From NCBI RefSeq assembly GCF_965221685.1, contig NZ_OZ244907.1: a stretch of DNA of 64,000 nucleotides, one strand, 5' to 3'. A program made the position numbers and the translations under genes. How positions within the stretch are numbered: position 1 is the stretch's first letter; each line of letters begins with the position of its first letter. The notes below the pieces were generated by a model. It ran no database searches and had not been told where the DNA came from. It saw nothing but the letters and a program-made list of their open reading frames with translations. Shown in pieces: positions 2,058 through 39,964 of this stretch. Source of the DNA: Candidatus Palauibacter sp. GTDB lineage: Bacteria > Gemmatimonadota > Gemmatimonadetes > Palauibacterales > Palauibacteraceae.

Positions 2058-5818
<3,761 letters not shown>

Positions 5819-5866: not shown

Positions 5867-6025
5867 GCGTGGCTCTTTAGCGATTGTTTTACGTGGCTGC
5901 AATCCGCCTCAAATCACCACGTCCGGATTCCCCCGGCGAACCTGAAACTAGCGCTCTCGCGGCGCCGACGAAACTTGGATCGGACTCCATTAAACGATGT
6001 CGCGGGAAGATGTGTCTGGCCTTAC

Positions 6026-10966: not shown

Positions 10967-11003
10967 TCACGTGAACCCGCCGGTCGCGACGGCCCGCGGC
11001 CGG

Positions 11004-16985: not shown

Positions 16986-19184
16986 GTGGGTCCAGACAAC
17001 CGAATCCCCCACCGCATCGGGCGGCTGTGGGAACTCGCGAACGACCTCTCGTGGACGTGGAACCCGGAGGCCCCGGCCCTCTTCCGGGCCATCGATCCGC
17101 CGCTGTGGCGCCGCACGCGGCACAACCCCGTGGCGCTGTTGCGGACCGTCGGAGGCGAGCGCCTGCGCAGCCTGGCCGAGGATCCCGTCTTCCTCCGGAG
17201 ATACGACGCGGCGCTGGACGTCCGGCGTGACGCCGTGGTCGTCGGTCACGCGCCTGAAGCGGGGACAGCCGGGCACGCCGACAACATCCGGGCGGACGCC
17301 ACCCCGACCTGGTTCGACGAGCGCTATCCCGCGCTCCGCGACCTCCCGGTGGCGTACTTCTGCGCGGAATTCGCGTTGCACGAGTCCATCCCCATCTACT
17401 CCGGGGGACTCGGCGTGCTCGCGGGCGACCATCTCAAGGCGGCGTCGGAACTGGGGGTCCCCCTTGTCGGCGTCGGGCTGATGTACGCGCACGGCTACTT
17501 CGACCAGACGCTGGGGTCGGACGGCTGGCAGGAGGATGCGGACGACCCGCTCGACCCCGACCTGACCCCGCTGGAGCGGTTGCGGGGCGTGGACGGCGTC
17601 CCCTGGCTCGCTTCGATCCGCGGCGGGGGACGCCGCATCCATATCGGGGCGTGGAGGCTGCGCGTCGGGCGCGTCTCGCTGTACCTCCTCGACACGGATC
17701 TCGAGGAGAACGATCCCGCCGACCGGGGCCTCTCCCACCAACTCTACGCGGGCGGCGCGGATCACCGGCTGCGGCAGGAAGCGATCCTCGGCGTCGGCGG
17801 CGTGCGCGTGCTCGCTGCGCTCGGGATCGAGCCCGGGGCGTGGCACGCGAACGAGGGACACGCGGCGTTCATGATGGTGGAGCGCGTGCGCTGGCTGATG
17901 CGGGACGGCCGGTCCTTCGAGGACGCGGTGTCCCGGGTCCGGGCTTCGACCGTTTTCACGACGCATACGCCCGTATCTGCGGGTCACGACGTGTTCTCTC
18001 ACGCGCAGATGCGCGATTGGATCGGCGAGACGTTCTGGGAAGAGATCCCTCACCGCGAGGAGTTGCTGGCACTCGGTCTCCATCCGGACGACGAGGCGCA
18101 GGACCGGTTCCACATGACGGCGGCGGCGATCCGGCTGTCGCGACGCGTCAACGGCGTCTCCGCCAGGCACGGGCGCGTGACCCGGGAAATCTGGCGCGGC
18201 CTCTGGGGGGACCGTGCGGCCGGAGAGGTACCGATCCGGCACGTGACGAACGGGGTCCACCTCGCCACGTGGATGAGCGATGACATCGCCGGGCTTCTGG
18301 ACGAGTGGCTGCCCGCCGGGTGGCGATGCACGGGCGACGAAGCGATGTGGCGCGCGGTGCGCGACGTGCCGGCGCAGGCGCTGTGGCGCGTGCGGCGCCG
18401 GCTGAAGCTCCGGCTCCTCGACCTGATGCGCGACGAGGCCAGGCGCCGGTGGCCCGGCCATTGGCCGGAGTCGGCCCACCTCGCCGGAGCCGGCACGCTG
18501 ATGAGCCCCGAGCCGCTCACGATCGGATTCGCGCGGCGCTTCGCGACCTACAAGCGCGCGGACCTCATCTTCCGCGACCGTGAACGCCTGCTGGCGCTGC
18601 TCTCGGACCCCGCCCGCCCCGTGCAGTTGATCTTCGCCGGCAAGGCGCACCCGCGGGACGACGACGGCAAGCGCGTCCTCCAGCGCGTGTACGAGCATAC
18701 GCGCGATCCGGAGTTCGAGGGGAGAATCGCCTTTCTCGAGAACTACGGACTCCATGCGGCGCACGGTCTCGTCGAGGGCGTGGACCTGTGGCTCAACCTC
18801 CCCCGGGTCCCGCTGGAGGCGAGCGGGACGAGCGGGATGAAGGCCGCCCTCAACGGCGTCCCCCAGCTCGCGACCGCAGACGGCTGGTGGGAGGAGGGTT
18901 TCGAGGGCGACAACGGGTGGATCATCCCGCTCGCCCCCGCGACGGCGAGCGAGAAGGAGGTGGACGAGCACGACGCCGGACAGCTCTTCCGGCTCCTGGA
19001 GGAGGAGGTCATCCCCCTCTACTACGATCGGCCCGGCGCCGGGGCCGCGGACGACGCCCCGGCAAGCTGGCTCGCGCCCGCCCGGCGCGCGATCGAGGTG
19101 GCCGGCGCGCGATTCACGGCGGGCCGCATGGTGCGGGACTACGCGCGGGACTACTACGTCCCGTCGCTGCGCGGCGACGACTGA
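16986..19184 (+). CDS. glgP: Alpha-glucan phosphorylase (GT35, GlgP-like, DUF3417-type N-terminus)
   Basis: WTWNPEA ... YFCAEFALHESIPIYSGGLGVLAGDHLK ... pyridoxal-phosphate phosphorylase core. GTG start. Confidence 0.85.
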   Translation: MGPDNRIPHRIGRLWELANDLSWTWNPEAPALFRAIDPPLWRRTRHNPVALLRTVGGERLRSLAEDPVFLRRYDAALDVRRDAVVVGHAPEAGTAGHADNIRADATPTWFDERYPALRDLPVAYFCAEFALHESIPIYSGGLGVLAGDHLKAASELGVPLVGVGLMYAHGYFDQTLGSDGWQEDADDPLDPDLTPLERLRGVDGVPWLASIRGGGRRIHIGAWRLRVGRVSLYLLDTDLEENDPADRGLSHQLYAGGADHRLRQEAILGVGGVRVLAALGIEPGAWHANEGHAAFMMVERVRWLMRDGRSFEDAVSRVRASTVFTTHTPVSAGHDVFSHAQMRDWIGETFWEEIPHREELLALGLHPDDEAQDRFHMTAAAIRLSRRVNGVSARHGRVTREIWRGLWGDRAAGEVPIRHVTNGVHLATWMSDDIAGLLDEWLPAGWRCTGDEAMWRAVRDVPAQALWRVRRRLKLRLLDLMRDEARRRWPGHWPESAHLAGAGTLMSPEPLTIGFARRFATYKRADLIFRDRERLLALLSDPARPVQLIFAGKAHPRDDDGKRVLQRVYEHTRDPEFEGRIAFLENYGLHAAHGLVEGVDLWLNLPRVPLEASGTSGMKAALNGVPQLATADGWWEEGFEGDNGWIIPLAPATASEKEVDEHDAGQLFRLLEEEVIPLYYDRPGAGAADDAPASWLAPARRAIEVAGARFTAGRMVRDYARDYYVPSLRGDD

Positions 19185-19240: not shown

Positions 19241-19993
19241 CTAGGGGGGCGGAAGCAGCTCGTCGAGGTAGCGGAGGAGCATGTTGCGCCACGTGGGCCA
19301 GTCGTGGTGCCACTCCTCGCCCCAGTCGTCCATCCGGTTCGGCACGCCCTTTTGCCCCAGGAGCGAGGCCGCGCGCCAGGACTCGCCGATATCCTCCGCC
19401 CGCCCGCTCCCGGAGGCGAGGAGGACGAAACGCCGACGCAGCCGGTCGAGCGTCTCGCCCTCGAGTTGCGGCAGATGGTGCACGGGCGAGGCTCGGTAGA
19501 AGTCGCCCGTCGCTCTCGCCTCGACGCCGGCGTCGTCTTTCAAAAAGCGCTGGAGATCGTAGGTGCCGCTCATGCACACGGCATGCGAGAAGGCATCGGG
19601 GAACCGGCACAGCGCGGCGAGCGCGTTGAACGCTCCGATGGAGGAGCCTCCGACGATGACCTCGATCCCCGGATCGTTGCAGTCCTCCCGGATCATGGGG
19701 ACGAACTCGCGGTAGACGAACTCCTGAAACCGGTTCAGGACGGCCATGCGGTGTTCGGGGGTCCCCTCGCGTCCGAGCATGACGCGGCCCGCCACGCTGT
19801 CGCACGAATAGACCTTGATCCGGCCGGCCGTCAGGTAGTCCGCCACCGTGTCGATGACGAGAAAGCGCTCGATCTCCTCCGCATCTCCTCCGGCGGTGGG
19901 AAACATGAGGAAGGGCACGCCGACCTCGCCCCACCGCGCGACGTTGACCTCCTGTCCGAGACGATGCGACCACCAGCTGGCATTGAGTTTCAT
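19241..19993 (-). CDS. Esterase-family alpha/beta hydrolase (PF00756-like)
   Basis: GGSSIGAF nucleophile elbow and overall esterase-D/FrmB-like layout. ATG 19993 overlaps the stop of the upstream ATP-grasp gene (ATGA). The ORF-track N-terminal extension to 20488 is spurious. Confidence 0.6.
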   Translation of the reverse strand: MKLNASWWSHRLGQEVNVARWGEVGVPFLMFPTAGGDAEEIERFLVIDTVADYLTAGRIKVYSCDSVAGRVMLGREGTPEHRMAVLNRFQEFVYREFVPMIREDCNDPGIEVIVGGSSIGAFNALAALCRFPDAFSHAVCMSGTYDLQRFLKDDAGVEARATGDFYRASPVHHLPQLEGETLDRLRRRFVLLASGSGRAEDIGESWRAASLLGQKGVPNRMDDWGEEWHHDWPTWRNMLLRYLDELLPPP

Positions 19994-21267
19994 GAGGCGA
20001 GAATCGGCACGGCGCCGGGGGGTTCCTCCCGGCGGGCCGCCTGTATGCGGTCGAAGAAGAGGGCGGTGAACTCCTCGATCTCGTGATCGGGGTAGAGCGA
20101 GGCCACCTTCTTGCGCACCGCCTCGTGAGCCGCCTCGCTGCCGAAGAACTCGTCGGCCACCTCGTCCAGCTCCGGGAGGTGCGTCTCGCAGAACTCCACG
20201 AAGCGGTCGGTCTCGAACCTGGCCTCCGCGATCCCGGCGCAGGCTCGAACCCTCTCGCCGACCGACATCCCCGGACGGCAGGCATCGAGGAACGGCTGCC
20301 AATCGAGGTTGATGCGCATCCTGCGCCGGGTCGCCGCGCAGAAGAGGGACCAGCGGAGATTCGCCTTGATGAGCCACGGGAAGTGGTAGTGGAGCGAGGT
20401 GACCTGCGAATCCGGACAGGGGTTCGCGAAGTCGATCGGCATCCACCGTCCACCGCTGCGAAGCACCTCGCACGAGTTGAAGTCCCACCCGAAGAAGGCG
20501 TTGATCGTGAGCGTCGTGTCGCGGATCGCGCCGGCGTCCGTGGGCTCGAGGTGATCGCGCGCGACGGTGTAGCGGTCGTGCGCCGGGGCGCCGGGGTCGT
20601 AGAGCACGGCCCGCGTCTGGGGTCCCAGCCCGATGCAGCGGACGAAACGGTCGTGCTCCACCCCCTGCTGGAGGTGCATGACGAACTTGCCGCTCTCGTC
20701 GTAGGCGGCGCCGAGCGCCTCGTCGTCACCGATCCGCGACACGCCGCGCCAGCCACCGCCGTCGTAGGGCTTCATGAACACGGGATAGCCCAGGTTTCGC
20801 GCCACGGCGGGCAGGTCGAAGAGCCGCGCGTAGCGTTTCAGGGTGACCGCCAGATCGTCCTGCGGATCGTAGGACTTGGGCGGGATGAGCCACGTCCGCG
20901 GAACGGGGAGGCCCAGCCTCATCATCGCGCAGTAGGTGGAGTGCTTCTCCATCGACTGGACGCTCCACGGACTGTTGAACACGTAGAGCCCGTCCATGAT
21001 CACCGACTTCTTGATCCACTCCCGCGTCGGGAAAAACCAGTGCGTGAGGCGGTCGATGACGACGTCGTACTTCCCCTTCTGCTGCAGGTCGAAGGGCTCG
21101 ATCGTGACGTCCTCGATATGGAACCGGATCGTACCGTCGGACGAGGGGATCCGGGGGTTCATCCGTTCGAGGATCTCGCGGTAGGCGATGGGCCAGCAGA
21201 GGTCCGCCCCGAGCGAGAGGCCGATGCGGCGCGTGACCCCGCCCGCGGACGTCGACGGAGCCGTCAC
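19990..21267 (-). CDS. Divergent ATP-grasp-fold protein (ATP-grasp B)
   Basis: NSPW...KHSTYCAMMRLGLPVPRTWLIP ... YPVFMKPYDGGGWRGV ... resembles ATP-grasp B-loop and P-loop-like elements, but is unrelated in order to the three paralogs A/C/D. The family is not pinned down. GTG 21267 forms a GTGA overlap with the upstream esterase stop. Confidence 0.5.
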   Translation of the reverse strand: MTAPSTSAGGVTRRIGLSLGADLCWPIAYREILERMNPRIPSSDGTIRFHIEDVTIEPFDLQQKGKYDVVIDRLTHWFFPTREWIKKSVIMDGLYVFNSPWSVQSMEKHSTYCAMMRLGLPVPRTWLIPPKSYDPQDDLAVTLKRYARLFDLPAVARNLGYPVFMKPYDGGGWRGVSRIGDDEALGAAYDESGKFVMHLQQGVEHDRFVRCIGLGPQTRAVLYDPGAPAHDRYTVARDHLEPTDAGAIRDTTLTINAFFGWDFNSCEVLRSGGRWMPIDFANPCPDSQVTSLHYHFPWLIKANLRWSLFCAATRRRMRINLDWQPFLDACRPGMSVGERVRACAGIAEARFETDRFVEFCETHLPELDEVADEFFGSEAAHEAVRKKVASLYPDHEIEEFTALFFDRIQAARREEPPGAVPILAS

Positions 21268-22460
21268 TCGTAGACCATCCAGAGCGGGCCCGGGAAGAGC
21301 CACGACAGGCCCTCGCGCAGGCGGTCGCGCCAGTTCTCCCAGTTGTGGCCGTCGCGCGACTCGACGAAGCGCACGTCCGCGCCGCCGCGACGGAGAGCGT
21401 GTATCAGGGCTCGGTTCTCCGAGACCAGCGGTTCGTAGACGCCCACGGAGACGAACGCCTTCTCCGCGATGGCGGTCGGCTCGGCCCGGTACGCGTTCAT
21501 CATGTCGACGATGCGGTCGAAGACGGGGCCGCTCTCGTTGTCGCCGATATCCGTGAAGAGGAACGAGCCCGACTGGAGCAGGATACGGCCGAAGCGGCCG
21601 GGGTATTCGAGCGCGGCGTGGAAGGATGCGACGGCGCCCAGACTCGCGCCCATGAGGCCGCGCGACTCCGGATCCGGGAGCAGCGGATAGTCGCGTTCGA
21701 GACGCGGGAGCAACTCTTCGGCGACGAACCGGGCGTGCGCCGGATCGGCCGAGTATTCCGACATCCGATCGCCCGGGTGCAGAAGGGCGACGATCATCCG
21801 GGGGACCTCGAAGCGGTCGATCAGTCGGTCGAGCACGTGCTTCAGGCCGGCGTACTCGACGTAGTCCCCGCCGTCGTGCACGATCAGCAGCGGGTAGCGC
21901 CGGTTGGCGCGGAACTCCGCCGGACGGTACACCGTCACGTGACGGGCGGATTCGAGCGCCCTGCTCTCGACCGCGAGTTCGTCCATTTCGCCGGGCCGGA
22001 CCTCCTCGCTCTCACGGGCCCAGTCGGGGATCTCGTAGCCCCGTGCCTGCACGACCGAGTTCGCGCCGAACGGGTCGCGGGCGCGTTGGGGGTTCAGCGG
22101 ATCCTCGATCCATTCGGCGCGGCCGCGGGAGAGCACCTCGATCTTGTACTCCACCCGGGACTCGTCGGGGAGTTCGAGGGTGTAGCACCAGAGATCGGTT
22201 CCGTCCAGGCGGCGGAAGGGTGCCGAGGTCTGGAGTCCGTGCACCCAGTGTCGCAGGCGCACGGCGTCGGCGTGGCCCCGGTACACGAAGGTGTAGAGTG
22301 GCGGCTCGGCGAGGGGGAACTCGTTCGCATCGACGAACGCGTCGACCGCATCCGCCGCACCGAGACCCGAGACGAGCTGTTTCTCGAGCGCCGCGATCGC
22401 GGGCGAACGCGGCATCGACAGGTCGTACCCGTGTTCCCGGGCGCCGGCGTCGAATCGCAT
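21264..22460 (-). CDS. Esterase-family alpha/beta hydrolase with N-terminal E-set/CBM48-like beta-sandwich (enterochelin-esterase-like architecture)
   Basis: N-terminal domain: PLYTFVYRGHADAVRLRHWVHGLQTSAPFRRLDGTDLWCYTLELPDESRVEYKIEV, the pattern of CBM48/AMPK-beta-GBD and the Fes N-domain. C-terminal domain: LLIVHDGGDY ... GASLGAVASF nucleophile elbow ... DGHNWENW. Confidence 0.6.
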   Translation of the reverse strand: MRFDAGAREHGYDLSMPRSPAIAALEKQLVSGLGAADAVDAFVDANEFPLAEPPLYTFVYRGHADAVRLRHWVHGLQTSAPFRRLDGTDLWCYTLELPDESRVEYKIEVLSRGRAEWIEDPLNPQRARDPFGANSVVQARGYEIPDWARESEEVRPGEMDELAVESRALESARHVTVYRPAEFRANRRYPLLIVHDGGDYVEYAGLKHVLDRLIDRFEVPRMIVALLHPGDRMSEYSADPAHARFVAEELLPRLERDYPLLPDPESRGLMGASLGAVASFHAALEYPGRFGRILLQSGSFLFTDIGDNESGPVFDRIVDMMNAYRAEPTAIAEKAFVSVGVYEPLVSENRALIHALRRGGADVRFVESRDGHNWENWRDRLREGLSWLFPGPLWMVYE

Positions 22461-22468
22461 GGGCCGGA

Positions 22469-23464
22469 CTACGCCGCCGCGCGGAAGAGGACCCGGCGGC
22501 CCGTCAGATCGAGGCGCTCGACGCCGTCCACGCCGCTCCAGCCGTCGCCGGCCCGGTCGATGCGGCGGCCCGGGTCGAGGAGGACGCAGGAGGCCGGGGC
22601 GAAGCGGGCTGCGAGCCGTGCCCCCCGCGTCCGGTCGTCCAGCGCCAGGCGGGCCGAGGCGTGGGGAAGCGCGACGATCCCCTGGGCGATCCCGAGTCCC
22701 GCATCGAACACCTCGGGGTTCCCCTCCCCCCAGGGTGGCCGATCGTGAAAGAGGACGATGCGCTCCGTCAGCGCCATCGCGCCCGCCGAGCGGGCGATCA
22801 CGGTGCGCCCTTCGAGGAGTTCCCGTCCGCCGAAGAGGCGAAGCCGGCTGAGCAGATTCGAGACGTGCCCGCCCTCGACGACGACCAACTCGACCCCCTC
22901 GAGGCGCGCGTCCACCTCCCGTCGCTGCGACCGCACGGCATCGCGCTCATCCGGCGCCATGCGCTCTTCGAACTCCGAGCGAAGCTCGACCACGCGGTCC
23001 AGATGGCGGGCATCGAGGCAGCGAATCGCTTCGAGAGCCTCCTCCCGCTCGGCGGCGAGCACCGTCTCGTCTCCCCGCAGCCCGGTCAACTGCCGATGGG
23101 CGTCGATGAGACCGTGGAGCCGCAGGTTGTAGGCGCGGCGCAGCGCCCTGAGCCGGTTCCGGCTCTCCAGGTGCGCACGCGCGAGTTCCGCGTCCGCCTC
23201 GGCGATCCGGTCGGAGCGCCGATAGAGTTCGAGATCCACGACGCGATCCGCCAGGCGGGGATGGATGAGTCCTTCGTTCGCCTCCCGGTCCCGCCATCCG
23301 GCGGTGATGGCCGCGATCCGCGCGCCCGGCGACAGCGCGCCTCCGGCCTCCAGTTCCCGCACCACGTCGATGAGCGCAAGGTCGCCCCCTCGCGGACCCA
23401 GGAGGACGAGCCGGGACGGGGACCCGGCGTTGTCATTGACCCGACGCCTTCTCGACACCCTCAT
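22469..23464 (-). CDS. Peptidase S51-family (cyanophycinase / peptidase E family) serine hydrolase with N-terminal coiled-coil-like extension
   Basis: C-terminal class-I-glutamine-amidotransferase-like fold with VIARSAGAMAL (GxSAG serine motif of S51) and downstream His/Glu-containing blocks. The N-terminal ~150 aa are Arg/Glu/Ala-rich heptad-like. ATG 23464 forms an ATGA overlap with the upstream ATP-grasp stop. Confidence 0.55.
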   Translation of the reverse strand: MRVSRRRRVNDNAGSPSRLVLLGPRGGDLALIDVVRELEAGGALSPGARIAAITAGWRDREANEGLIHPRLADRVVDLELYRRSDRIAEADAELARAHLESRNRLRALRRAYNLRLHGLIDAHRQLTGLRGDETVLAAEREEALEAIRCLDARHLDRVVELRSEFEERMAPDERDAVRSQRREVDARLEGVELVVVEGGHVSNLLSRLRLFGGRELLEGRTVIARSAGAMALTERIVLFHDRPPWGEGNPEVFDAGLGIAQGIVALPHASARLALDDRTRGARLAARFAPASCVLLDPGRRIDRAGDGWSGVDGVERLDLTGRRVLFRAAA

Positions 23465-24684
23465 GCGGCGCGCACTCTCACCCAGCGTCCGACCGCGTCG
23501 AGCATTTCGCGCAGTTCGTCGTAGTCCGGGTGCCGCAGACGTAGCCAGGCGTTCGCCATGTATCCGGCCTCCACCGGCTGGGTGGGCGTACCGGGCGGCG
23601 GCAGGTGCGTGTCGATGATCCACTCCCCGAAGCGGGCTTCCACCTCGTCCAGACCCTCATACCCCGCGATCCGCCCATCGTTTTCGGGCCGCAGCGTCAC
23701 GATCCCCGCGGAGTACCGGCGCGACGCGTCCCGCAGTTTCCGGCCATGCACGATGCAGGCCGCCCACTCGCGGTACACATCCAGTTCGTTCGCCGCGCCG
23801 TAGAGGTCCCAGGCCCGGACGCCGGGCGGACGGCAACCGATCTCGGAGAATCTGAGTCCCTTCTCTCCGAAGAACCATTCCATGTGGGTGGCGGAGGTCC
23901 CGATCTCGAGCGCATCGATGACCCGCTGCCCCAGGTCCCGGACCTCCGCGTAGGCGTGAGCGGCGTCGATCCGGTTCGTGGCGATGAACTGGGGCGACAC
24001 CTCCCGCGTCCGCATCGCCTCGAGCACGTTCGGGTAGTAGTGGGTCATGAAATCGTGGACGATCACGCCGTCCACCGTCAGCGTGTCGTAGAAGGCCTCG
24101 TGTCCGTCCACGAACTCCTCGACGGCGACTTCGGCGCCATGCCCGACGCCGAGGCGCGGGAGCAGAGCCACAAGCTGCGCCTCATCGTCGACGCGATACG
24201 TGCCCGAGGCGCCCGCCCCGGCGCGAGGCTTGATGATGAGCGGATAACCGATCCTCCGGCCGAAACCGGCGATCTCCTCGGCGTCGCCTCCCCCCATGGA
24301 TTGAGCGGTCGCGATCCCCGCAGCGCGAAGGGCGTCCTTCATTGCCGGCTTGTCGCGGCACAGGTGCGCGGTCCTCACCGAGGTCCCGGCCAGTCCGGCG
24401 GCTTCCCGCACGCGGGCGACCGGAAGGATGTGGGCTTCCACCGTGGCCTCGAGGCGATCCACGGGTTGCCGCCGGTGGATCTCGTGAAGGGCGTGCGCGA
24501 GCGCGCCCTCGTCGCACACGGAGCCGACCTGCTCGTAGCAGGTGAGCCACCGGTGCAGATCCGGGCCGAGCGCCTCCACCGGGGCTTCGCCCACCGCCGA
24601 CACGTCCGCGCCGATCTCGTGCAGACCGCGCACGAAGTCCTTCTGGTTTCCGGGAAACAGGGGTTCAACGAATACGACGTGCAT
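23461..24684 (-). CDS. ATP-grasp ligase, L-amino-acid-ligase-like (paralog A)
   Basis: 407 aa from ATG 24684, homologous position to paralogs C and D. Motifs CRDKPAMKDALRAAGI, GYPLIIKP, VAVEEFVDGHE, THMEWF, EIGCRPPG. These resemble BacD/YwfE-type Lal (ARDKNKMRDAF ... THTE ... ESAARFAGW). Confidence 0.7.
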   Translation of the reverse strand: MHVVFVEPLFPGNQKDFVRGLHEIGADVSAVGEAPVEALGPDLHRWLTCYEQVGSVCDEGALAHALHEIHRRQPVDRLEATVEAHILPVARVREAAGLAGTSVRTAHLCRDKPAMKDALRAAGIATAQSMGGGDAEEIAGFGRRIGYPLIIKPRAGAGASGTYRVDDEAQLVALLPRLGVGHGAEVAVEEFVDGHEAFYDTLTVDGVIVHDFMTHYYPNVLEAMRTREVSPQFIATNRIDAAHAYAEVRDLGQRVIDALEIGTSATHMEWFFGEKGLRFSEIGCRPPGVRAWDLYGAANELDVYREWAACIVHGRKLRDASRRYSAGIVTLRPENDGRIAGYEGLDEVEARFGEWIIDTHLPPPGTPTQPVEAGYMANAWLRLRHPDYDELREMLDAVGRWVRVRAA

Positions 24685-24808
24685 TGCTTCGCCAACGACT
24701 CGTGGGAAAAACTTCACTTTGAGGGCCCGACATAGTACAGTCCCTGCTCTCAAACGCCAGCCCGTCCGGCGGCGGCCGTCCGGCCCGCCGCGGGAACCCG
24801 GAAGATCC
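24685..24808. promoter_or_regulatory. Shared 124-bp divergent promoter region between ATP-grasp paralogs A (minus) and C (plus), with an AT-rich core GGGAAAAACTTCACTTTGAGGG
   Basis: The only intergenic space inside the cluster larger than 20 bp. No ORF with a start and stop fits. The frame contiguous with C has no ATG. Confidence 0.4.
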
Positions 24809-26032
24809 ATGCTCAACGTCGCCTTCGTCGCCCCGTTCTATCTCCCTACCACGCTGCGCTTTCTGGAGGCCGCCGCGGGGCTCGCCGACGTGCGCCTCGG
24901 GGTCGTGACGCAGGAACCGCTCGAACGAACGCCGGCCGCCCTCCGGCAGCGGATCGCGGCGCACGTCCGGGTCGAGGACGCGCTGTCGGCGGAGGGCATC
25001 CACGTCGGGCTGCGCCGGCTCTCTGCCGACCTCGGCGGGATCGACCGTCTGCTGGGCGCGCTGGAGGAGCTTCAGGTACCGCTCGGGGAGCTGCGTGACG
25101 CCCTGGGGTTCGCCGGGATGGGTGGGGCCGCCGCGCGCAATTTCCGCGACAAGTCCCTGATGAAGGACGTGCTCCGGGCACACGGCCTGCCCTGTGCCCG
25201 CCACGCGCTGGTCCGCGATGAGGACGAGGCAACGGCCTTCTCGGATGCGACGGGCTTCCCCCTCATCGTGAAGCCGCCGGCCGGTTCCGGCGCCCGCGGC
25301 ACCTTCCGCGTCGAAACGTCGGCGCAGTTGCGCACGGCGATCGCGATGTCGCGGCCGAGCGGCGAGCGGCCGACGCTCGTCGAGGAGTTCGTCGTGGGCG
25401 AGGAACACTCCTTCGACGCGGTCTCGATCGGCGGGCGCCTCGTCTGGCATTCGATCAACCACTACCTGCCTTCCCCGCTCGAGGTGCTGCGCGAGCCGTG
25501 GATCCAGTGGTGCGTCCTCCTCCCGCGGGAGGTCGATTCGCCCCGGTACGAGGAGATCCGGCGCGTTGCCGGACCCGCGCTCGATGCGCTCGGGATGGAG
25601 ACGGGGTTGAGCCACATGGAGTGGTTCCGGCGGCCCGACGGTTCGGTGGCGATCTCCGAAGTCGGGGCCCGCCCCCCTGGAGCCCAGTTCGTCACACTGA
25701 TCTCGCAGGCGCACGACTTCGACCTCTACCGTGCCTGGGCCCACCTCCTGGTCTTCGACGAGTTCGATCCCCCGCCGCGCCCCTATGCGGCCGGCGCGGC
25801 CTATCTCCGGGGACAGGGGCGGGGCCCCGTGCGACGGGTGGCCGGCATCGAGGAGATCGCGAACGACCTCGGGCCGCTCTGCGTCGAGTGGCGCCTCCCT
25901 CGGGCGGGACAGGCGCAGAGCGCGTCGTACGAGGGAGAGGGCTACATCATCGTCCGCCATCCGCGCACCGAGGTCGTCGAGGAGGCGCTGGGGCGGATCA
26001 TCACCCGCGTACGGGTGGAACTCGCCAAGTAA
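24809..26032 (+). CDS. ATP-grasp ligase, L-amino-acid-ligase-like (paralog C)
   Basis: 407 aa from ATG 24809. FRDKSLMKDVLRAHGLP, GFPLIVKPPAGSGARG, LVEEFVVGEEHS, SHMEWF, EVGARPPG. Confidence 0.7.
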   Translation: MLNVAFVAPFYLPTTLRFLEAAAGLADVRLGVVTQEPLERTPAALRQRIAAHVRVEDALSAEGIHVGLRRLSADLGGIDRLLGALEELQVPLGELRDALGFAGMGGAAARNFRDKSLMKDVLRAHGLPCARHALVRDEDEATAFSDATGFPLIVKPPAGSGARGTFRVETSAQLRTAIAMSRPSGERPTLVEEFVVGEEHSFDAVSIGGRLVWHSINHYLPSPLEVLREPWIQWCVLLPREVDSPRYEEIRRVAGPALDALGMETGLSHMEWFRRPDGSVAISEVGARPPGAQFVTLISQAHDFDLYRAWAHLLVFDEFDPPPRPYAAGAAYLRGQGRGPVRRVAGIEEIANDLGPLCVEWRLPRAGQAQSASYEGEGYIIVRHPRTEVVEEALGRIITRVRVELAK

Positions 26033-26052
26033 CGAAACCATTCAACGGAACC

Positions 26053-27270
26053 ATGAACGTACTGATGATTTCGCCGGGTTACCCGGCCGAGATGACGTAT
26101 TTCACACGGGGGCTCGCGGAGGTGGGCGCGAACGTCATCGGCCTGGGCGATCAGCCCGGGTCGGCGCTGCCCGAGGTCGCCCGGACGAGCGTTTCCACGC
26201 ACCTGCAGGTGAGGTCGCTGGCGGATGAGGCGGACGTGATGCGGCAGGTCGCCGCGCTCGCCGAGAGCACCCGCATCGACCGCGTGGAGTGTCTCTGGGA
26301 GCCCTTCATGATCCTCGCGGCGCGGCTGCGGGAGATGCTGGAGCTGCCCGGGCCGACCGTCGCGCAGACGCTCCCCTTCCGCGACAAGGAAGTGATGAAG
26401 GACGTCCTCGACAGCGCGGGGATCCGGACGCCCCGCCACGGGAGGGCCACGAGCAGCGCCGAGTGCCGCGAGGTTGCGGAGCACGTCGGCTTCCCGCTCA
26501 TCGTGAAGCCCGTCGACGGGGCCGGCTCGGCCGACACGCACCGGGTCGATTCGGCGCGGGAGCTGGAGCGGATCCTTCCGGCTCTCCGGCACGTTCCGCA
26601 GGTCACGGTGGAGGAGTTCATCGAGGGCGAGGACATGACCTTCGACACGGTCACGGTCGGGGGTGTCGTCGCGCACTACAACATCTGCCGCTACTGGCCC
26701 CGTGCGCTCGAGTCGAAGACGCACGAGTGGCTCAGCCCCATCACCTATGCGCTGCGCGACGTGGAGGCGGATGATGTCGCCGCCGGACGCGAGATGGGGT
26801 TCGCCGTGCTCGCCGCGCTCGGATTCGAGACCGGCTACACGCACATGGAGTGGTACCGGACGGCGGACGGGGAGGCCGTGTTCGGCGAAATCGCCGCGAG
26901 GCCCCCCGGCGTGCGGACGGTCGACCTCATCAACTTTGCGAGCGACATCGACACCTATCGCGGGTGGGCCGAGGGCGTCGTGCACGCGAAGTGGTCGCAG
27001 CCGGTGGAACGGAAGTACAACGCCTGCTGGATCGTCAAGCGGGCGCGCGGGCAGGGCCGGATCCAGCGCATCGAGGGGCTCGGCCCCCTGCTGCAGGAGT
27101 ACGGCGAGCGTGTGTGCAGCCTCGATCTGCTCCCGGTCGGGTCGCCACGGCGGAACTGGCAGGCCACGCTCGTCTCCGACGGGATGATCTTCCTCCGGCA
27201 CCCCGACCTCGGGGCGCTGGAGACGATCGCCGGCGAGTTCGCGACGCGGCTGCAACTCTACGCGGCCTGA
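26053..27270 (+). CDS. ATP-grasp ligase, L-amino-acid-ligase-like (paralog D)
   Basis: 405 aa from ATG 26053, 20 bp after C. FRDKEVMKDVLDSAGIRTP, GFPLIVKPVDGAGS, TVEEFIEGED, THMEWY, EIAARPPG. Confidence 0.7.
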   Translation: MNVLMISPGYPAEMTYFTRGLAEVGANVIGLGDQPGSALPEVARTSVSTHLQVRSLADEADVMRQVAALAESTRIDRVECLWEPFMILAARLREMLELPGPTVAQTLPFRDKEVMKDVLDSAGIRTPRHGRATSSAECREVAEHVGFPLIVKPVDGAGSADTHRVDSARELERILPALRHVPQVTVEEFIEGEDMTFDTVTVGGVVAHYNICRYWPRALESKTHEWLSPITYALRDVEADDVAAGREMGFAVLAALGFETGYTHMEWYRTADGEAVFGEIAARPPGVRTVDLINFASDIDTYRGWAEGVVHAKWSQPVERKYNACWIVKRARGQGRIQRIEGLGPLLQEYGERVCSLDLLPVGSPRRNWQATLVSDGMIFLRHPDLGALETIAGEFATRLQLYAA

Positions 27271-29279
27271 CCCCCCTTGCCCGACTCTTCCGAGCGCGTG
27301 AGCACGAGAAAACCCAGCGGCGGGAGATCGAGCGCGAGCGAGGCGGGGCGTCCGTGGCGGGAGACCTCCTCCGCGCAAGCCGGAGACGCGGTGCGTCCGC
27401 TCCCCCCGAAATCCGGGTCGCCGCTGTCCAGCAGGACGCGGTACGGCCCGGCTTCGGGCAGGGCGACCCGATACCGCGGCCATGCGGTCGCGGAGAAGTT
27501 CGCGACGACGACGACCGCTCCCTCCCACTCCGGCCGCCAACGCACGTAGCTCAGTACGCTGTGCGACGCGTCGTGCACGTCCAGCCACTCGAACCCTTCC
27601 GGCCTGTGGTCGAAGGCGTGCAGCGCCGGTTCGCTCGCGTAGAGACGGTTCAGCGCGCGCACCCAGCGCCGGAGCCCGCGGTGCGCCCGGTGCGTCGGGT
27701 TCGCTGACGCATCCGGAAGACCCCAGTCCAGCTCACCATCCTCGTCCCATTCCCGCCGCTCCCCGATCTCCCCTCCCATGAAGAGCAGCTTGGCGCCGGG
27801 GTGCGTCCACATGTAGCCGAGGAGGAGGCGGAGGCCGGCGAACTTCTCGTCGTCCGTCCCCGGCATCTTTTCAACGAGAGAACACTTGAGGTGAACAACT
27901 TCATCATGCGACAAGGGAAGTAGATACCGTTCCGAATGCGCATAGTGAAGCGAGAACGTCAGGTGGCGGTGCAGGCGCGGCCGCCGCTTCGGTGGCGCGG
28001 CGAGGACCCGGAGCGTGTCGTTCATCCATCCCATGTTCCACTTGAAGTCGAACCCGAGCCCTCCCTCGTCCACCGGCGCCGTCACCCCCGGCCACGCGCT
28101 GCTCTCCTCCGCGAACAGGAGAACGCCCGGAAGGTCGCGGTGGACCATCTCCGAGAGTCCTTTCAGGAAGGCGATCGCGCCGAGGTTCTCCCGTCCCCCG
28201 AGTTCGTTCGGCTCCCACTCTCCCTCATCCCGTGAATAGTCGAGGTGGAGCATCGACGCCACCGCATCGACGCGCAGGCCGTCCACGTGGTAGTGCTCGA
28301 TCCAGTAGCGCGCGCTCGAGAGGAGGAAGGAGACGACCTCGGGGCGGTTGAAATCGAAGGCGAGCGTGCCCCAGTCCGGATGAACGGCCCGCGATTCTTC
28401 TCCCATCTCGTAGAGGGGAGCGCCGTCGAACGTGCGCAGGCCGTGGAGGTCGGGGCCGAAGTGGCCGGGCACCCAGTCGAGCACGACGCCCAGCCCCAGG
28501 CGGTGGGCCTCGTCCACGAAATGTGCGAAGTCCTCCGGCGGTCCGTAGCGGGAGGTGGGGGCGAAGTACCCGACGGTCTGATATCCCCAACTCCCGTCAT
28601 ACGGATGTTCCATGACGGGGAGGAGTTCGATGTGCGTGAAACCCAGGTCGGCCACGTAGGGCAGCAGCTCCCGGGCGAGCGCGCGGTACCCCAGCCACGA
28701 GCCGTCGGCGTTCCGGCGCCAGGAACCGGGGTGGACCTCGTAGATGGAGACGGGGACTCCGGGAGTCGCGCGTTCCGGCCGGGTCTCGACCCACGCCGCA
28801 TCCGTCCAGCCGTGGGGGGCGGTCGACACGACTCGCGACGCGGTGCCCGGCCTGACTTCGGCGGCGCGCCCGAGCGGATCGGCCTTGTCGACCGCAAGGG
28901 GGAGCCCGCCCGGGGCGCCGTCCGTCCCGGAGCGCACCCGGAACTTGTACAGCTCTCCGGGTCCGACGCCGGGGACGAAGCGCTCCCACACGCCGGCATC
29001 TCCCACCTGAGACATGGGATGCGCCTCCCCCTCCCACTCGTTGAACGAGCCCACGACGCTGACCCAATGGGCGCGCGGGGCCCACACGGCGAACCGCGTA
29101 CCCGACTCCCCACCGCGCTCGCACGGGTGCGCACCGAGGAGATCATGCAGCGCCGACTCCCGTCCCGCGTGGAACGCCTCGAAGTCGGACGCCTTCAGAG
29201 GGAACGAAGGATCGCGTGCCGGGGTTTGGAGAGGTCCGGGCGGGCCGCTAGATTTTTCCTGTTCGATCTGCCACCTCAT
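27258..29279 (-). CDS. glgB: 1,4-alpha-glucan branching enzyme GlgB (GH13)
   Basis: N-terminal CBM48 (RFAVWAPRAHWVSVVGSFNEWEG ... LYKFRV) and GH13 catalytic blocks (GFTHIELLPV, VVLDWVPGHF, GLRVDAV, LFAEESSAWPGVT, FSLHYAHSE). Start at ATG 29279 (MRWQIEQ...) by alignment with GlgB N-termini. Confidence 0.9.
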   Translation of the reverse strand: MRWQIEQEKSSGPPGPLQTPARDPSFPLKASDFEAFHAGRESALHDLLGAHPCERGGESGTRFAVWAPRAHWVSVVGSFNEWEGEAHPMSQVGDAGVWERFVPGVGPGELYKFRVRSGTDGAPGGLPLAVDKADPLGRAAEVRPGTASRVVSTAPHGWTDAAWVETRPERATPGVPVSIYEVHPGSWRRNADGSWLGYRALARELLPYVADLGFTHIELLPVMEHPYDGSWGYQTVGYFAPTSRYGPPEDFAHFVDEAHRLGLGVVLDWVPGHFGPDLHGLRTFDGAPLYEMGEESRAVHPDWGTLAFDFNRPEVVSFLLSSARYWIEHYHVDGLRVDAVASMLHLDYSRDEGEWEPNELGGRENLGAIAFLKGLSEMVHRDLPGVLLFAEESSAWPGVTAPVDEGGLGFDFKWNMGWMNDTLRVLAAPPKRRPRLHRHLTFSLHYAHSERYLLPLSHDEVVHLKCSLVEKMPGTDDEKFAGLRLLLGYMWTHPGAKLLFMGGEIGERREWDEDGELDWGLPDASANPTHRAHRGLRRWVRALNRLYASEPALHAFDHRPEGFEWLDVHDASHSVLSYVRWRPEWEGAVVVVANFSATAWPRYRVALPEAGPYRVLLDSGDPDFGGSGRTASPACAEEVSRHGRPASLALDLPPLGFLVLTRSEESGKGGQAA

Positions 29280-29290
29280 CGCGGCGCGTC

Positions 29291-29305
29291 CGTCCGGACC
29301 GGACG
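29291..29305. promoter_or_regulatory. Inverted repeat CGTCCGG-A-CCGGACG in the 67-bp divergent glgB / glgA intergenic region
   Basis: Perfect 7-bp arms with a 1-nt spacer. Confidence 0.3.
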
Positions 29306-29346
29306 CCGTCCCTTGCAGCCACACATTCGCCACTTCGCGACGAAGT

Positions 29347-30867
29347 ATGAGCCGCATGCCCGCAATCGCCAAGCCAGCGCCGACACGACCGGCGGCGGGG
29401 GTCAAGCCCCCGGAGGAGCTTGCCGTCGTGCATCTCGTCGCGGAGTACTGGCCGTACGCCCGCACCGGCGGTCTCGCGGAGGCGGTGCGCGGCATCGCCA
29501 CCTTCCAGGCGGCCCAGGGGACCCCCGTCACGGTGTTCATGCCGCTCTACCGGTCGGTGCGCGAGGCTTTCCCCGACCTGGAGCCGATCACGGACAGCTT
29601 CCGCGTGCGCGTGGGGCGTCTGGTCGAGGAAGTCCGGATTCTCCAGCATCCCGGCCCGCGCCGGAACCCGCGCGTGCTCTTCGTCGATCATCCCGGGTGC
29701 TTCGACCGGGACGGGATCTACGGGGAGGGCGGGGCGGACTACACGGACAATCCGCTGCGCTTCGCGCTCTACAACCTCGCGGCGCTCCAGATTCTGCCGG
29801 AACTCGCCAACGTGCCCGTCGTCGTGCACGCGCACGACTGGCATGCGGCCCTCGCCCCCGTCTTCCTGCGCACGCGGTTCGCGGGACGCGAGGCGCACGA
29901 CCGCATGGCGGCCGTCCTCTCCATTCACAACGCCGGCTACCAGGGACTTCAGGGACCCGGCGTGCTCGGAGAGATCGGGCTTCCGCGCGAACTGTTCCAC
30001 TGGCGGCTCATGGAGTTCCACGGCCACCTGAACCTCCTCAAGGGGGGGCTCGTGTTCGCCGACTACGCGACGACCGTGAGTCCCACGCACGCACACGAGC
30101 TTCGCACGGCCACCGGCGGCTTCGGTCTTCACGGCTCTTTCATCGAGATGGGCGACCGCTTCCTCGGAATCCTGAACGGAGTCGATCTGGAAGTCTGGGA
30201 CCCCGAGACGGACGAGGAGATCGCCGCAACATTCTCGAGCGCGGAGCTGGCCGGGAAAGCGGTGTGCAAGCGGGCGCTGCAGCGGGAATACTCCCTGGCC
30301 GAGGCGCCACGCGAACCGTTGTACGGGATGACCGCGCGACTCGTCGGGCAGAAGGGGCTCGACCTCCTCATCGACGGCGGGCCGCTGGAGCGGGCCGAAG
30401 GGCAGTTCATCTTCCTCGGCCAGGGCGAGGAGCGGTACGAGACGGCGCTGCGCGAGTTGGCCGGACGGTATCCCGACCGGATCGCCGTGGACACCGGGTT
30501 CACCGAACCCAAGGAGCACCGGCTCCTGGCGGGAATCGACCTCCTCCTGATGCCGTCGCTCTACGAACCGTGCGGTCTCACGCAGATGCGGGCGCAGCTT
30601 TACGGCGTCCTCCCGGTCGCCCGGCGCGTCGGGGGGCTGGCCGACACCATCGAAGACCAGGTCACGGGCTTCCTGTTCGACGGATACACGTCGGAGGATC
30701 TCGAGGTCGCGCTCGGGCGGGCCGCCACGCTCTATGCGGGGGGGCCGGAGGCGTGGAACGAGCACGTGGTCCAGGCGATGACCCGCGACTTCGGCTGGGC
30801 GAGCAGCGCGGACCGCTATCTGGACGTTTACCGGCGGGCGCTCGCCGCGCACGCCCCGGGCGACTGA
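29347..30867 (+). CDS. glgA: Glycogen synthase GlgA (GT5)
   Basis: VVHLVAEYWPYARTGGLAEAV (KTGGL motif), HAHDWH, and C-terminal GT-B blocks (PLYGMTARLVGQKGLDL ... EPCGLTQMRAQLYG). ATG 29347. Confidence 0.85.
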   Translation: MSRMPAIAKPAPTRPAAGVKPPEELAVVHLVAEYWPYARTGGLAEAVRGIATFQAAQGTPVTVFMPLYRSVREAFPDLEPITDSFRVRVGRLVEEVRILQHPGPRRNPRVLFVDHPGCFDRDGIYGEGGADYTDNPLRFALYNLAALQILPELANVPVVVHAHDWHAALAPVFLRTRFAGREAHDRMAAVLSIHNAGYQGLQGPGVLGEIGLPRELFHWRLMEFHGHLNLLKGGLVFADYATTVSPTHAHELRTATGGFGLHGSFIEMGDRFLGILNGVDLEVWDPETDEEIAATFSSAELAGKAVCKRALQREYSLAEAPREPLYGMTARLVGQKGLDLLIDGGPLERAEGQFIFLGQGEERYETALRELAGRYPDRIAVDTGFTEPKEHRLLAGIDLLLMPSLYEPCGLTQMRAQLYGVLPVARRVGGLADTIEDQVTGFLFDGYTSEDLEVALGRAATLYAGGPEAWNEHVVQAMTRDFGWASSADRYLDVYRRALAAHAPGD

Positions 30868-30881
30868 ACCCCTCCTCGACC

Positions 30882-39953: not shown

Positions 39954-39964
39954 TCCGCGTCGCG

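Follow-up and report, generated by a model that had tools for sequence, protein, structure and literature searches.

The glycogen locus of Candidatus Palauibacter sp. raises the question of what seven closely packed genes, encoding four ATP-grasp ligases, an S51-like peptidase and two esterases, are doing between glgP and glgB. Coordinates (Table 1) are those of the window, the whole stretch of 64,000 nucleotides that was analysed. The seven genes are an undescribed module that has kept its place beside glycogen genes across six or more bacterial phyla, and full-text literature searches directed at the cluster turned up no account of it. A general reading, in which these ligases and hydrolases work together with glycogen metabolism, would seem to have an even chance of being right or slightly better.

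Table 1. Features of the locus and its flanks in the window
Feature	Position	Strand	Description
Na+:alanine/glycine symporter family gene	15049..16740	-	Na_Ala_symp E 1e-133
glgP	16986..19184	+	flank; glgP-type alpha-glucan phosphorylase; Pfam DUF3417 + Phosphorylase
E2	19241..19993	-	250 aa; esterase; final gene of leftward unit
B	19990..21267	-	425 aa; ATP-grasp
E1	21264..22460	-	398 aa; Fes-like serine esterase
S51-like hydrolase	22469..23464	-	331 aa
A	23461..24684	-	407 aa; Lal-type ATP-grasp ligase; opening gene of leftward unit
A/C intergenic region	24685..24808	.	124 bp; divergent
C	24809..26032	+	407 aa; Lal-type ATP-grasp ligase
D	26053..27270	+	405 aa; Lal-type ATP-grasp ligase
glgB	27258..29540	-	flank; branching enzyme; GlgB_N, CBM_48, Alpha-amylase, Alpha-amylase_C
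glgA	29347..30867	+	flank; glycogen synthase, Gemmatimonadota type; Glyco_transf_5
Two GH57 genes	30882..34282	+	flank; 30882-32294 (GH57 + DUF3536) and 32342-34282 (GH57 AmyA / 4-alpha-glucanotransferase type)

Organisation of the locus

A first-pass annotation of this DNA had placed eight genes between glgP and glgB, with glgA and GH57 genes beyond. Coordinates and Pfam matches confirm the packed arrangement and the glycogen genes on either side, but the count is seven, the eighth member of the cluster, an embedded glgA, being found only in other phyla. Five genes run leftward in the order A, S51, E1, B, E2 and two run rightward, C then D, with 20 nt between them. The stop/start overlaps read in the sequence exactly as they had been reported (ATGA at 23461-23464, GTGA at 21264-21267 and ATGA at 19990-19993), and the last of these, together with a rise in GC3, was used to pick the start of E2. 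In frame, the third-position GC of the seven genes is high, at 0.81-0.93. D and glgB are convergent with 3' ends that share 13 bp; the start of glgB is uncertain because its longest ORF overlaps the glgA ORF.

The leftward and rightward layout behind the earlier claim of two transcription units stands, with transcription itself being deduced from spacing, since a scan for promoters and terminators gave nothing better than chance. The divergent region between A and C, which is presumed to be a bidirectional promoter, contains no complete ORF of at least 20 aa and has no match in Rfam and none to the sigma-70 consensus. On the flanks, glgA scores 462 bits against TIGR02095 (cut-off 328), and glgP holds the same position in the Gemmatimonadota loci L004-L013, in all of which, as here, it is adjoined by the alanine/glycine symporter gene, a possible though weak link to substrate supply.

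Distribution and synteny

The marker peptidase is present in at least 541 species genomes, and a recurring gene order, [D, C] <> [GlgA, A, S51, E1, B, E2], is found in Gemmatimonadota, Acidobacteriota, Planctomycetota, Myxococcota, Eisenbacteria/Krumholzibacteriia and Chloroflexota. The earlier proposal had been made to depend on the genes being found together elsewhere, and they do sit together in many genomes from several phyla. Forty-three loci are well flanked, with at least 6 kb on either side; these are not phylogenetically independent, several of them coming from relatives of Palauibacter. E1 is present in 41 of the 43, B in 35 and E2 in 35, with E2 orthologs adjoining B in 35/43. At least one of A, C and D accompanies them in 33 loci and all three do so in 23; the ten loci with none of the three consist of S51-E1-B-E2 only, or fewer. 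At least 30 of the 43 loci, or 32 if tblastn matches are counted, have a glycogen gene (glgB, glgC, glgP, GH57 or debranching enzyme) no more than 10 kb away; some of the loci that lack A, C and D (L001, L038) have none within that distance. The genes that recur near the loci include glgC, the GDE debranching enzyme, glgP and GH57. The cluster had been described as inserted in the glycogen locus, which is misleading, since its GC content matches that of its flanks and different phyla have kept it linked to glycogen genes.

The cluster usually contains a bona fide GlgA. This embedded GlgA is the gene immediately before A in Acidobacteriota, Planctomycetota, Myxococcota, Eisenbacteria and Limnocylindria, and forms a clade of its own that spans phyla with 50-61% identity, whereas the flanking Gemmatimonadota-type glgA shares only 34-39% identity with it. 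In L052 and L002 the embedded protein passes both TIGR02095 (543-549 bits against 328) and NF001899 (476-483 against 459). The glgA and A genes of L002 overlap by 4 bp and its D overlaps glgB; in Eisenbacteria glgB comes after D, in the same direction and overlapping.

Among further neighbours, PPK2 separates E1 from B in three Planctomycetota loci and an SDF glutamate/dicarboxylate-type symporter does so in L036; GCS2-CBS, AstE/AspA and GGACT are present at some loci. No small family is conserved across the loci, nor does the cluster have a conserved ORF for a carrier or substrate. The cluster encodes no exporter, inspection of its protein sequences, E2 included, showed no signal peptide, and the conserved set holds no TonB receptor, tailoring or resistance gene. 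The module is widely spread in a pattern that looks vertical, and it is conserved in the manner of housekeeping genes, which sets it apart from typical natural-product clusters.

The ligases

A, C and D, which had been described as paralogs of about 405 aa, are 405-407 aa in length with pairwise identities of 31-35%. All three match ATP-grasp in Pfam (C with E 5e-12; D also matches ATPgrasp_N), and RDK, K152 (KP), EEF, HMEW, E281 and RPPG are invariant in them across the three phyla compared. Their top PDB sequence matches are RizA 4wd3 (E 1e-18), BL00235 3vot and Lal 30vh, ahead of Ddl, PurD and CPS, and BacD is also among their closest characterised relatives. That they would be Lal-type enzymes, as first suggested, is supported in that the nearest characterised enzymes are L-amino-acid ligases, although at about 30 bits they fall far short of the 850 needed to pass a curated Lal model such as the BacD equivalog NF053745. 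The thought that they might instead belong to a housekeeping ATP-grasp family is not borne out, with NCBIfam scores far under the curated cut-offs for Ddl, PurK, PurT, CPS and RimK, and likewise for cyanophycin synthetase.

B is a divergent ATP-grasp enzyme with an additional C-terminal all-helical domain at about residues 296-414. It matches no family in Pfam; a fold search returned a generic ATP-grasp fold, with RimK, ArgX/LysX and TTLL among the matches, and its best though weak NCBIfam matches, to LysX (25.5 bits against 275.6) and rimK_fam (22.1 against 143.4), do not reach the cut-offs. A graspetide RiPP, which would have a precursor peptide gene beside an MdnB/MdnC-type ligase, was considered and rejected: as had been pointed out earlier, the intergenic spaces hold no small ORF that could be a precursor gene, there is no conserved small family, and for B graspetide ligases rank under Ddl and RimK in the fold search. 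They are absent among the matches of C.

B and A are unusually conserved between phyla (63% or more), and the homologs of A are exactly 407 aa long in almost all cases. This would fit a conserved macromolecular substrate, and together with the resemblance of B to RimK, LysX and TTLL it recalls a RimK- or TTL-like tagging in which amino-acid tails would be added to a protein, perhaps a glycogen enzyme or one associated with the granule, and trimmed by the S51 enzyme. Such tagging would seem quite improbable, as it leaves two esterases without an obvious role and would act on a substrate whose ORF is conserved nowhere in the cluster, and A, C and D are closer to free-amino-acid ligases than to protein ligases.

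The hydrolases

A fold search gave the peptidase the S51 (class I glutamine-amidotransferase-like) fold of its first annotation, with cyanophycinase as the top structural match and PepE also among the best. Its score against PF03575 falls just short of the gathering score (22.3 against 23.9 bits), so that S51 membership of the window protein rests on the fold search; a PF03575 match is precomputed for many of its homologs. An antiparallel helical hairpin of about 100 residues is inserted at 80-188. Among 23 family members S226 (in SAGAM), H240, D241 and E251 are invariant, S226 being the nucleophile that aligns with the PepE serine, whereas H268, the canonical histidine position of the S51 Ser-His-Glu triad, which aligns with the histidine of PepE 'IPHAS', is N, G or D in four of the 23 and the chemistry of the peptidase may therefore differ from that of known S51 peptidases. 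Fusions of S51 with E1 (four among the best 150 cluster representatives; one in an ordinary NCBI MAG) are counted in favour of the two enzymes acting on what may be one substrate.

Both esterases belong to PF00756, as annotated. E2 matches it with E 7.8e-07 and has the nucleophile motif GSSIG; E1 matches it with E 6e-25, has the motif GASLG and carries in front of the catalytic domain a beta-sandwich N-domain of the Enterochelin_N type (E 3e-05). E1 had been called a CBM48/E-set esterase, of which "E-set-like" is a fair description and CBM48 is unsupported: the N-domain matches Enterochelin_N in 14/14 orthologs, CBM_48 in four (best E 0.024) and CBM_20 in seven (best E 0.0014), the latter two being sub-threshold, and when it was compared by hhalign with the CBM48 of GlgB from the loci the probability was 18%. 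A recognised starch- or glycogen-binding module was found in none of the cluster proteins.

The nearest PDB sequences to E1 are the enterochelin esterases Fes 2b20 and 3mga, then CE1-CBM48 feruloyl esterases. Enterochelin esterases are thus its nearest solved relatives, and Lal enzymes are part of antibiotic pathways such as those of bacilysin and rhizocticin, which would suit a secreted, NRPS-independent peptide or siderophore-like product with E1 as a Fes-type esterase. Such a product is most improbable, given that E1 reaches 120.6 bits against the NCBIfam enterochelin esterase equivalog cut-off of 222, that the conserved set is without the export, uptake, tailoring and resistance genes and the signal peptides sought above, and that the module is so widely and apparently vertically spread. 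Nor do ent/iro genes occur in any of the conserved neighbour families. A small NRPS-independent peptide was the first of three options offered initially and, taken as a secreted or matured product, it is the least consistent with a cluster that has no exporter or signal peptide and whose conserved neighbours are glycogen enzymes.

Proposed function

The reading that is preferred here is that of a cytoplasmic module which builds and breaks an amino-acid-containing reserve compound functionally coupled to glycogen, and it is judged about as probable as its opposite. B together with A, C and D, as four active ATP-grasp enzymes, would convert carboxylates to acyl-phosphates and couple amino acids to one another, probably with acidic ones included; the amide bonds of the product would be cut by the S51 peptidase and its ester bonds by the two PF00756 serine esterases. 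Enzymes of synthesis and breakdown would then share operons, much as glgA lies with glgP and cphA with cphB. Hints of acidic residues may be seen in the S51 relatives PepE and cyanophycinase, in the weak RimK/LysX matches of B and in the GCS2-CBS, AstE/AspA and GGACT neighbours. PPK2, the SDF symporter of L036 and the alanine symporter of Gemmatimonadota are counted for a putative storage or supply theme, and the lack of an exporter and of visible signal peptides for a probable cytoplasmic location.

The same GCS2-CBS, GGACT and AstE/AspA neighbours also recall glutathione-like and N-acyl-amino-acid metabolism, di- to oligopeptides are typical of the Lal enzymes that A, C and D resemble by family, and PF00756 also takes in thioesterases such as S-formylglutathione hydrolase. 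These features would suit a soluble metabolite of low mass in the cytoplasm, such as an oligopeptide, gamma-glutamyl compound or glucosyl-peptide, that served as osmolyte, redox buffer or glycogen regulator and was turned over by the hydrolases. This is improbable, however, as GCS2, GGACT and AstE are found in only 6-11 loci, seven enzymes, three of them hydrolases, are many for one solute, and linkage to glgB, glgC, glgP and GDE points to a polymer and not to a single glucosylation.

If the product is a reserve compound, the simplest molecule to fit would be an aminoacyl group or short peptide attached through an ester bond to hydroxyls of the alpha-glucan, since it would have both amide and ester bonds, would be intracellular and would be made by enzymes whose operons also encode GlgA, GlgB and GlgC. 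Glucan esters had at first been put forward as the most speculative option; the constant association of the cluster with glgA, glgB and glgC raises them to a leading candidate, although as a specific product this is tentative, with rather less than an even chance of being correct. The ligase substrates, the ester link to a glucan and the storage role are what we infer from the genes and their neighbours. A glucan ester would be a combined store of carbon and nitrogen, or a tag on glycogen. Against it, Lal-type enzymes are known for forming amides, not esters; ATP-grasp enzymes of the VanA type and those of graspetides are known to make esters. The absence of a recognised starch- or glycogen-binding module, the ten loci without A, C and D and the variable H268 of the peptidase also count against the preferred reading.

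The sharing of operons could instead mean the co-regulation of two separate stores, of carbon and of nitrogen, and not one molecule. The second store would be a polymer or oligomer that is not attached to glucan; it could resemble cyanophycin, as in the second of the options offered initially, or be a depsipeptide whose ester links are to the oxygen of Ser/Thr. Stand-alone ATP-grasp ligases would make it, and the S51 enzyme and the esterases would break it down. Cyanophycinase and PepE as top structural matches of the peptidase, cyanophycin synthetase among the weak matches of A, C, D and B, the placing of build and degrade genes in one operon as in cphA/cphB, and nearby PPK2 and amino-acid symporters all suit this, and seryl esters are cut by Fes-type esterases, to which E1 is related by family similarity only. 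It is nevertheless fairly unlikely, as the Mur-ligase-like M domain is absent, cyanophycin synthetase models give 26-44 bits against 850-877 (TIGR02068 / NF010623), and co-regulation alone poorly explains a distinct GlgA clade that travels across phyla translationally coupled to A.

Comparison with known systems

The cluster is like the cyanophycin system in having ATP-grasp amino-acid ligation beside an S51-fold hydrolase, in its non-ribosomal, cytoplasmic storage logic, in keeping genes for synthesis and degradation together and in that cyanophycinase is the best structural match of its peptidase. It differs in lacking the CphA architecture, an ATP-grasp G domain fused to a Mur-ligase-like M domain, since a Mur-ligase domain is in none of the seven proteins and scores fall far below the synthetase cut-offs as given above, in having four separate ligases in place of one, in having two esterases, and in an S51 enzyme with a helical hairpin and a canonical histidine that is not invariant. 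We know of no counterpart in cyanophycin loci to the conserved linkage with glycogen genes.

RizA, BL00235, BacD/YwfE, TabS and PGM1 resemble A, C and D in fold, length (about 405-470 aa) and motifs, although the relationship is distant, as the BacD equivalog score indicates, and the cluster differs in having three paralogs, each conserved, in a primary-storage context in many phyla and not in an antibiotic cluster. RimK and the LysX-ArgX ligases are comparable to B as its best though weak sequence matches and as some of its top fold matches. With Fes/IroD and with CE1 esterases that bear an N-terminal CBM48, both groups being among its best PDB matches, E1 shares a beta-sandwich N-domain followed by PF00756; unlike Fes/IroD it is below the equivalog cut-off, lacks a siderophore context and is fused to S51 in some genomes, and unlike the CBM48-bearing CE1 esterases it has a CBM48 assignment that is unsupported.

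Finally, HOIL-1L in mammals carries out oxy-ester ubiquitination of glycogen, in which the carboxylate of a polypeptide is esterified to glucose units of glycogen or maltooligosaccharide (PMC13345935). This eukaryotic system, a precedent whose enzymology is unrelated, uses a ubiquitin E1/E2/RBR E3 cascade where the cluster has ATP-grasp ligases, and it serves tagging and not storage, the bacterial product being hypothetical; the likeness lies in the ester chemistry, which is that proposed for the favoured glucan ester.

Organisation of the cluster

The cluster consists of seven genes in two divergently oriented units, a leftward one encoding the ATP-grasp ligase A, an S51-like hydrolase, the serine esterase E1, the divergent ATP-grasp enzyme B and a second esterase, E2, and a rightward one encoding the ligases C and D, with glycogen genes on either side and a Na+:alanine symporter gene beyond glgP. 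Gene starts were set by third-position GC profiles, start/stop overlaps and homolog lengths; the first-pass annotation had counted eight genes where these models give seven, whilst the three overlaps it reported within the leftward unit are indeed present (ATGA at 23461-23464, GTGA at 21264-21267 and ATGA at 19990-19993). A scan of the cluster for consensus promoters and terminators produced no match above chance, and thus it is from spacing alone that the operon structure is deduced; a search of the divergent promoter region for known riboswitches and other known RNAs found none.

Coordinates of the cluster, its flanks and associated features in comparison loci
Feature	Locus	Position	Placement	Length or remark
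A	window	23461-24684	leftward unit	407 aa
S51	window	22469-23464	leftward unit	331 aa
E1	window	21264-22460	leftward unit	398 aa
B	window	19990-21267	leftward unit	425 aa
E2	window	19241-19993	leftward unit	250 aa
C	window	24809-26032	rightward unit	407 aa
D	window	26053-27270	rightward unit	405 aa
glgP	window	16986-19184	one flank	
glgB, glgA and two GH57 genes	window	27258-34282	other flank	
GCS2-CBS region	L002	15058-17938		also L020, L021, L027, L033, L047, L055, L078
PPK2	L051	3687-4577	between E1 and B	Planctomycetota
PPK2	L054	4264-5154	between E1 and B	Planctomycetota
PPK2	L073	12083-12949	between E1 and B	Planctomycetota
Sodium:dicarboxylate symporter family	L036	12171-13475	between E1 and B	Eisenbacteria
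S51-E1 fusion	L087	3967-6201	after PAD (arginine deiminase family) and HEAT-repeat genes	B, E2 and a further ATP-grasp gene come next

The nearest homologs of the window proteins, among the matches listed, belong to sponge-associated Gemmatimonadota of Candidatus Palauibacter. Recent horizontal insertion of the cluster is not supported, as its linkage is conserved, its GC content equals that of the flanks (~70% throughout the window) and there is no compositional break. The longest ORFs of the divergent flanking genes glgB (27258-29540, minus strand) and glgA (29347-30867, plus strand) overlap by ~190 bp, as they do in the comparison locus L006, and the true starts must be internal to these ORFs.

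Other features of the window include a SAM_alpha (SAM-II) riboswitch (5857-5930, minus strand; 48.8 bits, gathering score 36) upstream of metH, which encodes a B12-dependent methionine synthase of 1225 aa (2054-5731, minus strand) and precedes a homocysteine S-methyltransferase/MTHFR fusion (213-2057, minus strand). This arrangement is ordinary; the SAM_alpha family is named for the Alphaproteobacteria and the host here is Gemmatimonadota-like. Upstream of the cluster (9159-13873, plus strand) are genes for an MR_MLE enolase-superfamily protein (dipeptide-epimerase-like), a GNAT acetyltransferase, an S9 prolyl-oligopeptidase-family peptidase and an SDR. The last two are also close to the cluster in the Gemmatimonadota loci L004 and L005, which may be lineage synteny only. 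An operon of DUF4350, MoxR AAA+ ATPase (AAA_3) and DUF58/VWA genes (37795-41272, plus strand) is unrelated to the cluster.

Distribution and gene order

At least 541 species-representative genomes contain relatives of the S51-like protein, as judged by a profile search, and in the representative library the search identified 361 clusters at 50% identity (E<=1e-30). The window proteins were placed by tblastn on 85 fetched loci and every ORF of those loci was clustered. Co-localisation in other genomes had been named as a check in the first-pass annotation, and across the 85 mapped loci gene order proved to be conserved in several phyla: the recurring arrangement, [D, C] <> [GlgA, A, S51, E1, B, E2], is found in Acidobacteriota (including Thermoanaerobaculia), Planctomycetota, Myxococcota, Eisenbacteria/Krumholzibacteriia, one Limnocylindria (Chloroflexota) MAG and some Gemmatimonadota.

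Membership was counted in the 43 loci with flanks of 6 kb or more on each side, not all of which are phylogenetically independent. E1 is present in 41 of these, B and E2 in 35 each, and at least one of A, C and D in 33, with all three in 23. The remaining ten have S51-E1-B-E2 or fewer, so that these four genes constitute a separable core. In one Gemmatimonadota genome an IS element with HTH_Tnp_1 and rve transposase genes (L005 7395-9977) disrupts A, which is uninterrupted in the nearly identical locus L004.

Exporters, receptors, tailoring enzymes and precursor peptides are all absent from the conserved set, and inspection of the translated sequences of the three hydrolases revealed no signal peptide. 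A secreted natural product is on these grounds highly improbable as the output of the cluster.

Linkage to glycogen genes

In most loci outside the Gemmatimonadota a GT5 gene lies immediately upstream of A; in L002 the two overlap by 4 bp and D also overlaps glgB. The embedded GT5 proteins clear the NCBI glgA subfamily cut-off and one GlgA equivalog cut-off, which identifies them as genuine ADP-glucose glycogen synthases. Across phyla they group into a clade of their own with 50-61% identity, a divergence similar to that of the other cluster proteins, and have only 34-39% identity to the glgA product of the window itself, where, as in its Gemmatimonadota relatives, the cluster is instead located between glgP and glgB-glgA-GH57. 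GH57, glgC (12 loci) and a GDE-type debranching enzyme (four loci) also recur in the neighbourhood.

A glycogen gene is found within 10 kb in at least 30 of the 43 well-flanked loci (32 when tblastn matches in L020 and L047 are added), whereas by a rough estimate chance would place one in such a span in only a few percent of cases, for a handful of glycogen genes among a few thousand genes per genome. In many phyla the gene set has genetic ties to both the synthesis and the breakdown of alpha-glucan. In these loci glgA accompanies the cluster only where A, C or D is present (22 of 33 loci, and none of the ten core-only ones); core-only loci of Planctomycetota nevertheless have glgC and GDE nearby, and two core-only loci, L001 and L038, have no glycogen neighbours. 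No recognised glucan-binding module is present in the cluster proteins. A separate reserve, cyanophycin-like or a depsipeptide and merely co-regulated with glycogen, we regard as rather unlikely. That the module works with glycogen storage metabolism, in the broader sense, we consider marginally probable.

The ATP-grasp ligases

The paralogs A, C and D share 31-35% pairwise identity and their best solved sequence relatives are L-amino-acid ligases, namely RizA (4wd3, E 1e-18), BL00235 (3vot) and BacD. Scoring against curated HMMs had been proposed for the ATP-grasp enzymes, and with the NCBIfam models no housekeeping placement was found: A, C and D score far below the curated cut-offs for Ddl, PurK, PurT, PurD, CPS, RimK, LysX, cyanophycin synthetase and BacD, so that a housekeeping assignment (Ddl, PurK, PurT, CPS or RimK) is ruled out and the enzymes fall outside every named Lal family. 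The A family is very large and almost always exactly 407 aa in length, and source databases label it merely "ATP-grasp domain-containing protein".

When A, C and D of three phyla are aligned, the RDK, KP lysine, EEF, HMEW, second Mg glutamate and RPPG motifs are invariant, and judged from these all three look catalytically competent. The earlier argument against a graspetide RiPP holds, since the precursor ORF is absent and the ligase type is wrong. Ester formation is within reach of ATP-grasp enzymes, as in the VanA-type and graspetide ligases. As the output of the cluster, a small soluble peptide or glucosyl-peptide seems unlikely, and protein tagging as its role very unlikely.

The esterases and the S51-like hydrolase

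E1 has an Enterochelin_N-type N-domain and a PF00756 esterase domain, and its nearest solved relatives are Fes (enterochelin esterase) followed by CE1 esterases with CBM48; the CBM48 label originally given to the N-domain is unsupported by either Pfam or hhalign. Membership of a siderophore/Fes system is ruled out, as E1 scores under the Fes equivalog cut-off and siderophore genes are absent. E2 is a short PF00756-like esterase. An exact-sequence look-up of the S51 protein of the window returned no record.

Among the top 150 representatives, S51 is fused to E1 in four different 50%-identity clusters (P0390, P0463, P0480 and P0498; 698-787 aa), and one such fusion is located in an ordinary NCBI MAG, where B and E2 follow. 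These fusions indicate that the peptidase and esterase probably share a single substrate. An apparent B-E2 fusion (P0153, L086 8755-10926) was discounted as Rosetta-stone evidence, since it lies on a long-read contig of 1.63x coverage in which A is split into two ORFs, and is most likely a sequencing frameshift artefact.

Other neighbours

In 11 loci the gene immediately after E2 encodes a GCS2-type carboxylate-amine ligase fused to two CBS domains, and in six of them an AstE/AspA-type deacylase gene comes next. The L002 cluster also contains a GGACT gamma-glutamyl cyclotransferase-like gene; these genes may represent an optional extension of the pathway. The insertion of polyphosphate kinase 2 (PPK2) genes is another tie of the cluster to a storage polymer or to ATP regeneration. 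The inserted symporter, of the glutamate/aspartate/C4-dicarboxylate type, is a possible hint to the substrate, and several neighbours, the relatives of S51 (Asp-specific PepE and cyanophycinase) and the RimK/LysX-like matches of B hint weakly at acidic amino acids.

The proposed product and its significance

The cluster thus encodes a conserved and, as far as sequence can tell, cytoplasmic set of four apparently active ATP-grasp enzymes, an S51-fold hydrolase and two serine esterases. Ligases and hydrolases are encoded together, a pattern shared with glgA/glgP and cphA/cphB, and for this reason one and the same cell probably both makes and consumes the product, as a reserve or a reversible modification. 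The Lal-type ligases and S51 suggest that it would hold amide bonds, and the two esterases, one sometimes fused to the peptidase, that it would hold ester bonds. Once the glycogen linkage is taken into account, the simplest molecule of this kind would be a glucan whose hydroxyls carry ester-linked aminoacyl or short peptidyl groups, a structure that we propose only tentatively. It is equally tentative that in at least six bacterial phyla glycogen might be ester-decorated with amino acids or short peptides by ATP-grasp ligases and stripped by the esterases and S51 peptidase. Such a "peptido-glycogen" would serve as a combined carbon and nitrogen reserve or as a tag controlling granule turnover.

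All of the protein superfamilies involved are already known. Pfam and NCBIfam models do not capture the way in which they are combined, B and the hairpin-bearing S51 protein as distinct families, or the conserved association with glycogen genes, and two proteins of the seven- to eight-gene module have no curated family. No description of the cluster was found in the full-text literature, where subscription journals are thinly covered so that absence is not proof, and nothing relevant was found there for Palauibacter and glycogen together. That the product is categorically new is a substantial possibility.

Bacterial glycogen is regarded as a pure glucose polymer, and cyanophycin is to our knowledge the sole well-known non-ribosomal amino-acid reserve. 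The module adjoins or interleaves with glgA, glgB and glgC in Gemmatimonadota, Acidobacteriota, Planctomycetota, Myxococcota, Eisenbacteria and Chloroflexota, which are abundant soil, marine and sponge-associated groups, and its product is likely to be a common, unrecognised component of storage metabolism. If attached to glycogen, this product would represent a novel type of biopolymer modification; if a free polymer, it would be a novel store of nitrogen. Both cases would make the ligases novel catalysts that form peptides or esters independently of an NRPS.

The logic of the cluster is similar to that of cyanophycin metabolism. An oxy-ester between polypeptide and glycogen is known in mammals, where ester ubiquitination of glycogen was recently discovered (PMC13345935), and the bacterial system proposed here would be its ATP-grasp-based counterpart.
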